Part shown: one piece after another, positions 11,273-15,020 of the stretch
Layout of the letters: each line of letters begins with the position of its first letter
Position numbering within the stretch: position 1 is the stretch's first letter
From: a virus
IMG/VR virus record: IMGVR_UViG_3300046468_001139
Length of the DNA: 64,000 nucleotides
Direction: 5' to 3' (one strand)
Translations under genes and position numbers: made by a program
Notes under the pieces: model-generated
Told to the model about the DNA's origin: nothing
Seen by the model: the letters and a program-made list of their open reading frames with translations, nothing else
Databases searched by the model: none

Positions 11273-12376
11273 ATGTTGGAAGCACTAAAATCACTTTTTG
11301 AAAACAATGTTCTTTCTGAAGAGATTAAAGCTGACATCCAAGAAGCGTGGGACAAACAAGTTAATGAAAATAAACTTGCTGTCACAGCTGAACTTCGCGA
11401 AGAGTTTGCTTCAAAGTATGAGCATGATAAGGCTCAAATGGTAGAAGCAGTTGATGCATTAGTCAACGATAAACTAAGTGAAGAAATTTCCGAATTTGCT
11501 GAAGATAGAAAAGCATTAGCAGAAGCAAGAGCAAAATACGCTGTTGCAATGCGTGAAAACGCAGGTATGCTAAAAGGCTTTGTATTTGATCAGCTTAAGA
11601 AGGAAGTTGGAGAACTACATGAAGATCAGAAAGTTGTATCAGAGAAATTTGGTGCTCTTGAAGAATTTGTAGTAGAAGCTTTGTCAAAAGAAATTGCAGA
11701 GTTCCATCAAGATAAGAAAGACTTAGCAGAAACGAAAGTACGTTTAGTACGTGAAGCTAAAGATCACTTAGCAAAAGTTAAAGCTAACTTTGTTAAGAGA
11801 AGTGCAGAACTAGTAACTGAAACAGTAAGTAAAGGCCTTAAAAAGGAAATTACTGCACTGAAAGAAGATATTGATTCAGCACGTAAAAACGATTTTGGTC
11901 GCAAGATTTTCGAAACATTTGCGGGTGAGTATACTAACTCATACTTAAATGAAAAATCAGAAACATCTAAGCTAATGAAAGTTGTTGAGTTGAAAGACAA
12001 AACAGTTGAAGAAGCTAAAGCAGATGTTGCTGAGAAGTCGAAGATTATTGAATCTAAAGAAGCAGAGATTGCTAAATTAGTTGAAGCGACTAAGAGAAAA
12101 GAAGTAATGCACGAATTAACTGGTCCTTTGAGCAAGGATCAACGTGAGATTATGAATGACTTACTGGAAAGTGTACAAACGGACAAACTGAAAGGTGCGT
12201 TTGACAAGTACATTACTGCCGTTATTGACGGGAAGACTCCGGAAAAGAAGAAGGCGAAATTGACAGAGTCAGAGGCAAAAGAAATCACAGGCAATAGAAA
12301 AACTAACGTTAGTAGTGTAAGCGTCGAATCAACAAATAATATTGTTGACATTAGACGACTTGCAGGATTGAAATAA
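11273..12376 (+). CDS. gp22: prohead core scaffold protein
   Basis: Coiled-coil E/K-rich protein between protease and major capsid. Confidence 0.85.
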   Translation: MLEALKSLFENNVLSEEIKADIQEAWDKQVNENKLAVTAELREEFASKYEHDKAQMVEAVDALVNDKLSEEISEFAEDRKALAEARAKYAVAMRENAGMLKGFVFDQLKKEVGELHEDQKVVSEKFGALEEFVVEALSKEIAEFHQDKKDLAETKVRLVREAKDHLAKVKANFVKRSAELVTETVSKGLKKEITALKEDIDSARKNDFGRKIFETFAGEYTNSYLNEKSETSKLMKVVELKDKTVEEAKADVAEKSKIIESKEAEIAKLVEATKRKEVMHELTGPLSKDQREIMNDLLESVQTDKLKGAFDKYITAVIDGKTPEKKKAKLTESEAKEITGNRKTNVSSVSVESTNNIVDIRRLAGLK

Positions 12377-12386
12377 GGAGAAAATA

Positions 12387-13553
12387 ATGTCAGAACTACT
12401 AGAAAGTCGCTGGCAGGATACCAAAGTTGCACTTTTAGAAGGCCTTCAAGGCAATAAGAAAGCAACAATGGCAAGCACTCTTGAAAACACACGCAAGTGG
12501 TTGAATGAGACTGCTACAGCTGGTTCTACAAGCGCCGGTAATGTTGCAACTCTAAATAGAGTTATCCTACCAGTAATCAGACGTGTCATGCCAACTGTAA
12601 TCGCCAACGAATTAGTCGGTGTACAGCCTATGACAGGTCCAGTGGGTCAAATCCACACATTAAGAGTACGTTACTCAGATTCATCTGATGGTAACGAAGT
12701 AGGTGAAGAAGCACTTTCACCATTTAAGATCGCATCAGCTTACTCAGGTAACGCTACAGATGCAACACCAAAAGGATCTGCAACAGCGGCTCTTGAAGGT
12801 GCGGCTGGTAAGAGATTATCAATCCAGATCTTAAAGCAAACTGTCGAAGCAAAAACCAGAAAGCTATCAGCTAGATGGACTTTTGAAGCGGCTCAAGATG
12901 CTCAAGCACAGCAAGGTATCGATATTGAAGCAGAAATTATGGCGGCATTAGCCCAAGAAATTACTGCTGAGATTGATCAAGAAGTATTAGCTTCTTTACG
13001 TGCTTTAGCAGGATCTACAAACCAACAAGCATACGACCAGACTGCTGTAAGTGGTACTGCAACATTCGTAGGTGACGAACATGCGGCATTAGCTGTAATG
13101 ATCAACCGTGTTGCAAACACTATCGCTCAGCGTACTAGACGTGGTGCTGGTAACTACGCAGTGGTATCGCCACATGCATTAACTGTACTTCAGTCAGCAA
13201 CAACTTCAGCGTTCGCAAGAACAACTGAAGGTTCTTTCGAAGCTCCAACTAACACTAAAATGGTTGGTACTTTGAATAGTGCTATGAAAGTATATGTTGA
13301 TTCATATGCGGCTGATAACACAGCAGTACTAGTTGGTTACAAAGGATCTTCAGAGTCAGACGCACCAGCGTTTTACTGCCCATACATTCCATTAATGAGC
13401 AGTGGCGTAGTGTTAGACCCTGATAGCTTTGAGCCAGTAGTAAGCTTCATGACTAGATACGGATATGTTGAGTTATCAAACACAGCATCGTCTCTAGGTA
13501 ACGCGGCGGACTACTTAGGTACAGTTACTATCGCAGGTGTAACATTCTCTTAA
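12387..13553 (+). CDS. gp23: major capsid protein
   Basis: RRVMPTVIANELVGVQPMTGPVG, KTRKLSARWTFEAAQD, FYCPYIPL, FMTRYG motifs. Confidence 0.97.
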   Translation: MSELLESRWQDTKVALLEGLQGNKKATMASTLENTRKWLNETATAGSTSAGNVATLNRVILPVIRRVMPTVIANELVGVQPMTGPVGQIHTLRVRYSDSSDGNEVGEEALSPFKIASAYSGNATDATPKGSATAALEGAAGKRLSIQILKQTVEAKTRKLSARWTFEAAQDAQAQQGIDIEAEIMAALAQEITAEIDQEVLASLRALAGSTNQQAYDQTAVSGTATFVGDEHAALAVMINRVANTIAQRTRRGAGNYAVVSPHALTVLQSATTSAFARTTEGSFEAPTNTKMVGTLNSAMKVYVDSYAADNTAVLVGYKGSSESDAPAFYCPYIPLMSSGVVLDPDSFEPVVSFMTRYGYVELSNTASSLGNAADYLGTVTIAGVTFS

Positions 13554-13579
13554 GACATAGTCTTAAATAGAAGTACTAG

Positions 13580-13611
13580 AAAGGGCGGACTTAATTGTTC
13601 GCCCTTTTTTT
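13580..13611 (+). terminator. intrinsic terminator after gp23
   Basis: AAGGGCGGAC-TTAATT-GTTCGCCCTT followed by a T run. Confidence 0.85.
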
Positions 13612-13653
13612 ATGACTAAAATTCCATTTTATATATTTTGGTAAACAAAGTGA

Positions 13654-13682
13654 TTGCTCTTTGTTAATAACAATGTTATATT
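13654..13682 (+). promoter_or_regulatory. sigma70-like promoter
   Basis: TTGCTC-17 bp-TATATT with extended -10 TG; predicted start near 13688-13690. Confidence 0.55.
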
Positions 13683-13687
13683 ATTAA

Positions 13688-13903
13688 TATAGCAACAAAA
13701 GAGTAATTAGCTTTTGTTTATAGTGCAAGGAAGAGGCCTTTACCAGAAGGGTCGAACTTGACTAGCCAGGGGTGGTACCCAGGTGCTGTAGTAGAAATAC
13801 GCAGTATCACATCGCAGTCACTAGCGGGGTTAGGTTGTACGTATTAGAATGGTATTCGGGTACGTGCTTGTAGGTGTAACCAAGTCCTACCTATTTTGCT
13901 ATA
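13688..13903 (+). ncRNA. unidentified structured ncRNA candidate (about 215 nt)
   Basis: No ORF in the track; closing stem TATAGCAA/TTGCTATA; several internal hairpins including a GAAA tetraloop; more GC-rich than flanks. Confidence 0.6.
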
Positions 13904-13989
13904 CTTAAATTTAGACTCGCAAAAAGACCTATTATAAGCACCTTTTTCGCCGACCGGCTAAATACATATAACAACTTCTAAACAATGAC

Positions 13990-14013
13990 AAACTGCTTTA
14001 TGCAGTTTTTTTT
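13990..14013 (+). terminator. intrinsic terminator
   Basis: AAACTGC-TTTAT-GCAGTTT plus T run. Confidence 0.7.
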
Positions 14014-14041
14014 GTGACTAAACGTTCTGCTAAATATTAGT

Positions 14042-14449
14042 ATGAAGGACGAGTACACAACAGTCTTTTACGACCTTGTCCAAGAGACACAGTCCACTAC
14101 AGGATACGAACTTCCAGTAGAAGTTGAAGCATATGTAGTAATGCTTCTTGCATCCAAAATAGATAAACCAAATATTATTCCCGTTGAAAGTTTTGCACAA
14201 TCTTACCTTGCACTAAAACAACCTTATAGATTAACAGCTAAAGAATTAGGTGACACATGCCTGTTTGTAACAAGCGTATTCCCCTCTTACGGACGTCGAT
14301 ACGGTTTAGACAAGCATTACTATAGCAACATAGGAAAGAACAGCTACAGCCTAGTTAAAACAAGTTTAAACGGCCAACTGTTCGAAGTACTAGAAACACA
14401 ATTTGATTTTGTAAGAGATTTCATTTCATTAACAGTACGAATTGATTAA
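14042..14449 (+). CDS. hypothetical protein (135 aa)
   Basis: ORF with TAAATA 5 nt upstream; LGD.CLF...FP....YY..IG..SY motif recalls a bacterial conserved hypothetical family. Confidence 0.65.
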   Translation: MKDEYTTVFYDLVQETQSTTGYELPVEVEAYVVMLLASKIDKPNIIPVESFAQSYLALKQPYRLTAKELGDTCLFVTSVFPSYGRRYGLDKHYYSNIGKNSYSLVKTSLNGQLFEVLETQFDFVRDFISLTVRID

Positions 14450-14460
14450 ACAGATAAATA

Positions 14461-14545
14461 CTTGTGTCAAATAGTGTGCCGCAAGGCGGACTTATGCAGA
14501 ATACCAACTGCGTAGCTCATAGAACGGGCATTGGACTACTTTTTA
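14461..14545 (+). promoter_or_regulatory. structured 5' leader after late promoter GATAAATA (14453-14460)
   Basis: GCC-GCAA-GGC tetraloop; TATGCAG/CTGCGTA stem. Confidence 0.45.
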
Positions 14546-14558
14546 TAGGAGAAAACAA

Positions 14559-15020
14559 ATGGGAAGACCAATTAATAAAAGATATTTCGGAGTAGAGGGT
14601 GTAGGCCCAACTGCTGGCGGAACAGAGATCAAAGTAAACTTTCATAATGGCACAGCCGTTAAAGAAGGTTATATTGTTAAACAACTAGGTTCAAAAAAAT
14701 TCCGTGTTGAAGAAATTGAAACAGCAGGAACTTTTGATTGTACACTAACAACTGGCGTATTACCAGCGGCTTTAACAGCTGGCCAAATGTCAATTTCAGT
14801 ACAAGGTGCAGACTCAGAAACTTATGGCGTAAGTAAAATTACAAACCGTATGGTTAAAGTAGCTCAGCCAAGTGCAACTGGATCTAACGCACTAGACGGC
14901 GAAAGCCTTAAGTGGGCGTTAACTGGTGCCGCGGCATCTGGTACAGTTAGAATGGAAGAAGCTGGTGATGATAACACATTAACTGGTACAGACGACGACG
15001 ATCTAACAGAAGACGCATAA
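14559..15020 (+). CDS. putative virion structural protein
   Basis: Own late promoter, RBS and terminator; G/T/A-rich; Y.VKQ.GS.KF.V motif. Confidence 0.55.
   Translation: MGRPINKRYFGVEGVGPTAGGTEIKVNFHNGTAVKEGYIVKQLGSKKFRVEEIETAGTFDCTLTTGVLPAALTAGQMSISVQGADSETYGVSKITNRMVKVAQPSATGSNALDGESLKWALTGAAASGTVRMEEAGDDNTLTGTDDDDLTEDA

Follow-up and report, generated by a model that had tools for sequence, protein, structure and literature searches.

Genes and features of the locus

The window analysed here is the whole 64,000-nt stretch of viral DNA in IMG/VR record IMGVR_UViG_3300046468_001139. Its source is an uncultured giant (jumbo) T4-like phage. The features of interest are collected in Table 1 and begin with a gene for a gp23-family major capsid protein. 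Among cultured phages, the nearest relatives of this protein (67–72% amino acid identity) belong to jumbo phages with genomes of 287–469 kb. These include Sinorhizobium phage Phosso (469 kb), Vibrio phage 2.275.O (349 kb), PA5oct-like Pseudomonas phages and Cronobacter GAP32. To judge from the CheckV completeness of related contigs, the genome would be ~350 kb. Between the prohead protease and capsid genes, an ORF at 11273–12376 encodes a coiled, Glu/Lys-rich product of 367 aa. Its sole match is PHROG 10922 (unknown function); by position, it is probably the scaffold protein.

The capsid gene is followed by a strong intrinsic terminator, a promoter, the RNA described below, two further terminator sites and ORF135. 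For ORF135, no Pfam or PHROG match was found. This ORF occurs in contig L004, where the RNA core is missing, and in L076. Conversely, it is absent beside the RNA in L006. A TAAATA-like box lies just ~10 nt 5' of the ORF135 ATG. Hence, the leader of ORF135 may be very short. Further downstream, the freshwater-2 motif ends in an AGGAG ribosome-binding site and the ATG of a late ORF (14559–15020, + strand). The late promoter, freshwater-2 leader and late gene form a conserved block after the capsid gene, and their order is kept in relatives.

Table 1. Coordinates of genes, signals, helices and loops at the locus (window positions in nt; R1 is the covariance model made in this analysis).
Feature	Position	Strand	Basis or remark
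gp23-family major capsid gene	12387–13553	+	Pfam PF07068 Gp23, E 9.8e-99; PHROG 138
Capsid-gene intrinsic terminator, GC hairpin (13578–13609) + T-run	13578–13616	+	dG -21.2 kcal/mol, z -5.05
sigma70-type promoter: -35 TTGCTC (13654–59), 17-nt spacer, extended -10 TG (13674–75), TATATT (13677–82)	13654–13682	+	sequence
manA-family RNA	13684–13909	+	Rfam part 13696–13900; R1 13684–13909
Outer stem	13688–95/13896–903	+	forms in window sequence
P1	13694–701/13711–18	+	projected Rfam structure, own numbering
P2	13719–23/13891–95	+	
P3	13726–29/13757–60 and 13735–41/13747–53	+	
L3 loop UACCA	13742–13746	+	complementary to L8
P4	13762–67/13828–33	+	CUAGCC/GGUUAG
P5	13769–71/13778–80	+	GGG/CCC
L5 loop GUGGUA	13772–13777	+	candidate partner L7
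P6	13782–89/13801–08 and 13791–93/13798–800	+	GAAA loop
P7	13812–15/13824–27	+	UCGC/GCGG
L7 loop AGUCACUA	13816–13823	+	candidate partner L5
P8	13837–45/13859–67 and 13847–50/13854–57	+	
L8 loop UGGUA	13850–13854	+	complementary to L9 and L3
P9	13870–74/13886–90	+	
L9 loop ACCA	13879–13882	+	complementary to L8
Decayed remnant of the RNA's own terminator	13918–13948	+	no stable hairpin, z 0.37
First functional-looking terminator downstream (13990–14008 + T8)	13990–14016	+	scan match; fold z -2.55
ORF135 (135 aa, starts MKDEYTTVFYDLVQ)	14042–14449	+	optional neighbour, not tied to RNA
T4-type late-promoter-like GATAAATAC	14453–14461	+	sequence
freshwater-2 RNA leader (RF02980)	14475–14561	+	69.2 bits, over gathering score

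Family assignment and fold of the RNA

The initial annotation, made from the sequence without database searches, described a novel structured RNA that matched no known class. The claim of novelty proved wrong. In an Rfam scan by E-value of positions 13500–14100, the segment 13696–13900 (+ strand) aligned to RF01745, the manA RNA, with 45.0 bits and an E-value of 2.3e-10. The alignment is full length, spanning model positions 1–192 of 192. The gathering score of RF01745 is 55.2 bits and the window copy falls below this cut-off. Hence, a scan at gathering level gave no match over the flagged span. Novelty had been claimed on the understanding that a match to a known Rfam family would end it; the RNA has such a match, and so the claim falls. 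Weak Rfam matches at 13506–13669 (MicC, MicX, csRNA and others) lie on or beside the capsid terminator, far under their thresholds, and were rejected.

We next consider homologues of the RNA. Among 50,697 phage records, the only blastn match was in Pelagibacter phage Mosig, with 72.8% identity over 230 nt. The Mosig copy scores 64 bits with RF01745 and is over the cut-off. We also collected 80 viral contigs by capsid similarity and scanned these with RF01745. Full-length manA was present in 19 of the 80; seven copies were over the cut-off and those at the same locus scored 55.5–79.9 bits. Both R1 and an nhmmer profile place the window copy (192.5 bits with R1) and the above-cut-off copies in one family. 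A search of the 64-kb window with R1 gives this copy and no other. The sequence blocks of manA are all present in the window copy, where they line up with the model consensus: the AGUG junction, a GGUGGU-type loop, a GNRA loop and UUG, GGU, UCC and CCUA around the last hairpin. These blocks correspond to invariant or near-invariant columns in our alignments A1 and A2. Because the RF01745 match is full length, and because the RNA is homologous to copies that pass the cut-off, its sequence identifies 13684–13909 (+ strand) as a divergent member of the manA family, ~215–225 nt long.

The + strand of the region folds better than shuffled sequences (z -2.57). The - strand does no better than its shuffles (z -0.79). 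To assess the fold among homologues, the Rfam structure was projected from the window onto plain MAFFT alignments. In A1 (19 sequences), 76.1% of positions expected to pair did so, compared with 61.8% after shuffling. The covariation score was 0.359, against 0.160 for shuffles and at most 0.166 for slid controls, and double changes occurred in 43 of 60 pairs. In A2 (22 sequences), pairing was 76.7% versus 62.4% and covariation 0.325 versus 0.137, with slid controls at or below 0.138. A larger alignment, A4 (68 distinct sequences), gave 85.2% versus 65.9% pairing and 0.438 versus 0.145 covariation (slid controls at most 0.117), although A4 was fitted to the model and so leans towards it. Covariation strongly supports a fold of nine helices: a 5' hairpin, a closing stem and seven more in nested three- and multi-way junctions. 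Helix numbers (P1–P9) are our own, set by the order of the helices and by the position of the GNRA loop as L6.

This fold retains much of what had been drawn from the single sequence. The helix AACAAAAG/CTTTTGTT is present and covaries in relatives. So do CAAG/CTTG around GGCCTTT/AAGGGTC, GGTGCTG/CAGTATC with its GTA-GAAA-TAC cap, GTACGTA/TACGTGC with GAAT/ATTC, and GTAGG/CCTAC. The proposed outer stem, TATAGCAA (13688–95) with TTGCTATA (13896–903), forms in the window; across the 22 homologues it is 57% paired, with little covariation and a conserved AUAAG/CUUAU core. Other elements did not survive the comparison. The TGACT/AGTCA helix is paired in only 31% of cells, and the suggested AACC/GGTT pseudoknot (54% paired) does no better than slid controls. 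Conserved in their place are CTAGCC/GGTTAG, GGG/CCC and TCGC/GCGG; these helices (P4, P5 and P7) were absent from the fold first drawn. We found no conserved reading frame. Briefly, most homologues have frameshifting indels or stops that disrupt the three short ORFs, and a small ORF was rejected as an explanation of the region. Covariation and the lack of a conserved ORF both bear out the reading of the region as a structured non-coding RNA.

Promoter, terminators and genomic contexts

The RNA had also been credited with its own sigma70-type promoter and with insulation from the capsid gene. Both claims stand. The hairpin and T-run at the end of the gp23 gene form a strong terminator, and the promoter layout is kept among homologues. 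A regular expression, TTGnnn-N16/17-TGnTAnnnT, located the promoter at a fixed distance from the RNA in 20 of 22 homologues, and the other two were recognised by eye. The same layout occurs in 51 of 60 copies in a larger set. In relatives, the promoter consists of an A-rich tract, TTGACA/T (the consensus -35 element, present in most of them), 16–17 nt and TGnTATAtT. The window -35 element matches at just 3 of 6 positions. Hence, a simple promoter scan missed it. Given a host-type promoter with an extended -10 element, we infer that transcription starts near 13689–13691.

The second terminator of the initial annotation also exists, and lies beyond the flagged span, at 13990–14016. Closer to the RNA is the decayed remnant at 13918–13948. 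The homologous spot in L004, a near relative, is a good terminator (z -4.0). Relatives in general have a GC hairpin and T-run here, which starts -4 to +5 nt from the end of the RNA model in 18 of 22. In the larger set, a terminator directly follows the RNA in 22 of 29 capsid-linked copies. ATAAATA, the T4-type late promoter, is then present in 17 of the 22 relatives. Where downstream sequence was read, this mostly comprised the freshwater-2 leader and the next late gene. In the window phage, the proximal terminator is decayed and the next is at 13990–14016. Hence, the transcript probably ends there, as predicted from the sequence, and would be ~325 nt long. With a weak -35 element and the proximal terminator lost, some read-through towards ORF135 is possible.

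Taken as a whole, the sigma70 promoter, the RNA and, usually, an intrinsic terminator form a self-contained portable cassette in the variable spacer behind the capsid gene, with a separate late promoter for the next gene. RF01745 carries the label 'Cis-reg', for a 5' UTR location. In the window, what comes after the RNA is instead a decayed terminator, then a functional-looking one and ORF135. The label is an annotation and does not define the fold. Hence, its mismatch lowers the case for a cis regulator here, not that for a manA RNA.

Close relatives illustrate how the locus changes. The capsid gene of L004 is 93.5% identical in DNA to that of the window. This contig lacks window positions 13618–13906, and the flanks, to 13617 and from 13907, are kept. 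In place of the missing segment are 131 nt (L004:4231–4361) in which the sigma70 promoter and a good terminator remain and the manA core is replaced. The replacement is ~110 nt of unrelated sequence with AAAGGAG. The L004 segment could have arisen by deletion or replacement, or could encode another small transcript within the same type of cassette. The closest distinct copy of the RNA is that of L006, which is 87% identical and differs by compensatory changes in P3 and P6. In L006, which lacks ORF135, the RNA adjoins the late promoter and freshwater-2 leader. Neither Phosso nor Vibrio phage 2.275.O, the cultured jumbo phages with the closest capsids, has a manA match. In both, the spacer 3' of the capsid gene is just ~100–120 nt.

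Our first sample was anchored on the capsid gene. Hence, a motif taken from the RNA was used in a further scan of viral contigs, and 79 were fetched. Fourteen of the 79 were too short to judge, leaving 65 informative. The RNA lay 122–1326 nt 3' of a gp23 homologue, on the same strand, in 40 of the 79. No capsid gene was upstream in 25; five of these 25 matched only by chance, within coding DNA, and were excluded. In other contexts, the RNA is upstream of genes for gp32, redoxin, mannose-6-P isomerase/cytidylyltransferase or Hsp20, and of rubrerythrin in Mosig. Terminators are rarer away from the capsid gene (5 of 18), and a TATAAATA box often adjoins the 3' end of the RNA. In L111, L143, L170, L172 and L179, manA is upstream of gp32 (PF08804), with no terminator and with the TATAAATA late promoter adjoining the RNA 3' end. 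To judge from this arrangement, early transcripts of the gp32-linked contigs would carry manA as a gp32 5' leader, and late transcripts would start just after it.

Complementary loops and the role of the RNA

Outside the helices, the strongest covariation is between apical loops. These loops are not column-aligned between subgroups. Hence, a register-free test replaced a column-fixed one. Briefly, loop partners were permuted among sequences, using 60 distinct RNAs and 3000 permutations. Complementarity of L8 and L9 beat that of permuted partners (0/3000). The paired variants include UGGU/ACCA, AUGA/UCAU, GAGA/UCUC, AGGAU/AUCCU and AUGGAAU/AUUCCAU. L3 and L8 gave the same result (0/3000). For L5 and L7 the count was 90/3000, and the complementary runs vary by subgroup (GGUA/UACC, UAGU/ACUA and UGGU/ACCA). 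The window copy has only GUG/CAC, three Watson-Crick pairs, between L5 and L7. In the same permutation test, the other seven loop combinations were not significant. Comparison of these sequences indicates that L8–L9, L3–L8 and L5–L7 are kept complementary by natural selection through sequence change. Such covariation cannot tell intramolecular pseudoknots from intermolecular kissing.

A parallel comes from a 2026 preprint (10.64898/2026.07.01.735769). It reports manA RNAs that form pentamer-based decamers and 60-mer cages in vitro, as seen by cryo-EM. Cage contacts listed there are L5-L7', L8-L9' and L3-L8' kissing loops together with an L6 GNRA contact. The cages come solely from in vitro work with high concentrations of RNA and Mg. 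Counted in order, our helices number nine and the GNRA loop falls at L6. On the strength of these shared labels, under our own P1–P9 numbering, the covarying loop pairs would be the kissing contacts of the preprint.

We therefore lean, with some reserve, towards a trans-acting, self-associating RNA product. Briefly, host sigma70 RNA polymerase would start at ~13689–91, at the extended -10 promoter, independently of the late capsid transcript. The latter would end at its own strong terminator. In most relatives, an intrinsic terminator would close the RNA at once and the next gene would use its own late promoter; in the window phage, transcripts would run to 13990–14016. The RNA would then self-associate via kissing loops into a closed oligomer and act in trans, early in infection. 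Self-association is the most likely mechanism because the loop pairs are conserved and contacts with the same labels are described in the preprint. By analogy with the preprint RNAs, the window copy may oligomerise; it may also act in trans. A more specific version, in which the early RNA assembles within the infected cell into pentamer-based decamers or 60-mers that act in trans, for instance by sequestering a host or phage factor, is speculative and we hold it doubtful. A scaffold role, or the decoy role raised in the initial annotation, may be compatible with the self-assembly reported for manA RNAs (10.64898/2026.07.01.735769). For a ribozyme or packaging role, we found no specific support.

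The main rival to a trans-acting product is a cis riboswitch. Such an RNA would sense a metabolite, control terminator read-through or translation and tune early expression downstream. Weinberg et al. (2010; PMC2864571) found manA in 5' UTRs and rated it a probable riboswitch. The order of promoter, aptamer-sized complex fold, terminator and gene is also that of a classic transcriptional riboswitch. Furthermore, copies in Mosig and upstream of gp32 have no terminator and the RNA enters the leader of the downstream gene, as an early 5' UTR. Even so, we think a riboswitch unlikely. No shared theme links the downstream genes (a late structural gene, ORF135, gp32, redoxin, Hsp20, mannose-6-P isomerase and rubrerythrin), and the next gene mostly has its own late promoter past the terminator. 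Terminator arms vary freely, and their complementarity is 6.3 for cognate and 6.6 for non-cognate RNA. Hence, no antiterminator is visible when terminator arms are compared with their own and foreign RNAs. The most variable covarying positions are mutually pairing apical loops, rather than a conserved pocket with an expression platform. Finally, 16 years on, manA has no known ligand. The RNA itself is probably the product, and a switch for the neighbouring gene is unlikely.

Other readings have far less in their favour. The weak -35 element (TTGCTC, compared with TTGACA/T in relatives), the degenerate proximal terminator and an Rfam score under threshold could mark a decaying, non-functional copy. 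The cassette would then be disappearing, much as in L004, which no longer has the core. We consider this very unlikely. None of the nine helices is disrupted, its 192.5 bits rank among the top R1 scores, L006 differs by compensatory changes in P3 and P6, and L3, L8 and L9 are still mutually complementary. In addition, an extended -10 promoter depends little on its -35 element. Slimmer again are the chances of a 3' element of the capsid mRNA, whereby gp23 read-through would generate a 3' UTR structure that stabilises or localises an abundant late transcript. The position of the RNA, 122–1326 nt behind a same-strand gp23 homologue in 40 of 65 informative motif-anchored contigs, speaks for this. 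However, between the capsid gene and the RNA stands a strong terminator (z -5), and the RNA has its own conserved sigma70 promoter. The distance between gp23 and the RNA varies ~tenfold; hence, other sequence intervenes in many relatives. The same RNA also occurs far from any capsid gene, and close relatives do without it. Least probable of all is a new class of RNA with no relation to known families, such as a ribozyme, decoy or packaging RNA. In its favour, every Rfam match here stays under its gathering score, and ARAGORN detects no tRNA or tmRNA in the window. Nevertheless, a new class is refuted by the full-length RF01745 alignment (E 2e-10) and by a continuous chain of homologues that passes the threshold.

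The finding itself mainly corrects the initial annotation: the family is known and the member, in a jumbo-phage lineage, is new. Its wider meaning depends on what manA does. The family has been an orphan 'riboswitch candidate' since 2010, and the in vitro cages of 2026 came without a biological link. What this locus and ~60 relatives add is, first, that manA behaves as a portable gene, usually behind the capsid gene, across a large T4-like lineage of giant, uncultured phages. Second, they point to three loop pairs under selection, labelled as the cage contacts are. If the cage reading were true, the particle would be the first RNA-only cage in nature to have a biological role, and the 16-year label of 'riboswitch candidate' would be overturned. 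ROOL, GOLLD and OLE are likewise structured, often phage-associated RNAs of unknown function that form RNA-only multimers. They are much longer (several hundred nt), and unrelated to manA in sequence and fold.

Compared with catalogued manA (RF01745; PMC2864571; Rfam update PMC7779021), the window copy has the same multi-helix architecture over the full model. Shared features are AGUG after the closing stem, the GGUGGU-type loop, the GNRA-capped hairpin and the UUG-GGU...UCC-CCUA terminal hairpin. Both occur in T4-like phages from aquatic metagenomes. The RNA was first described before genes for mannose-6-P isomerase, Hsp20 and nucleotide or DNA metabolism (Weinberg et al. 2010, PMC2864571). 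Consistent with this, sister copies of the window RNA precede mannose-6-P isomerase, Hsp20 and nucleotide/DNA-metabolism genes, and the motif-anchored scan turned up the familiar manA settings of mannose-6-P isomerase, Hsp20 and gp32. The window copy differs in its longer P1 and P6, its variant L7 loop and its score of 45 bits, and in belonging to a jumbo-phage lineage, not to cyanophages. Moreover, manA is catalogued as a cis-regulatory 5' UTR element, whereas the window copy lies behind the capsid gene as a promoter-RNA-(terminator) cassette whose neighbours are interchangeable.

For manA_A0F1 and manA_pho34_A767, the preprint (10.64898/2026.07.01.735769) describes intermolecular L5-L7, L8-L9, L3-L8 and L6 GNRA contacts, labels that are shared with the window lineage. 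Those assemblies were seen in vitro, and the helices of the window copy would correspond to theirs under our own numbering. The closest copy in a cultured phage is that of Mosig EXVC030M (MT647606, 108164–108371), which has the same fold and a TTGACA-N17-TATATT promoter. It differs in context, being 20 nt upstream of the rubrerythrin gene near gp32, with no terminator, and not behind the capsid gene. The locus and its relatives make the in vivo formation and relevance of manA assemblies directly testable, and cultured phages such as Mosig offer the point of entry.
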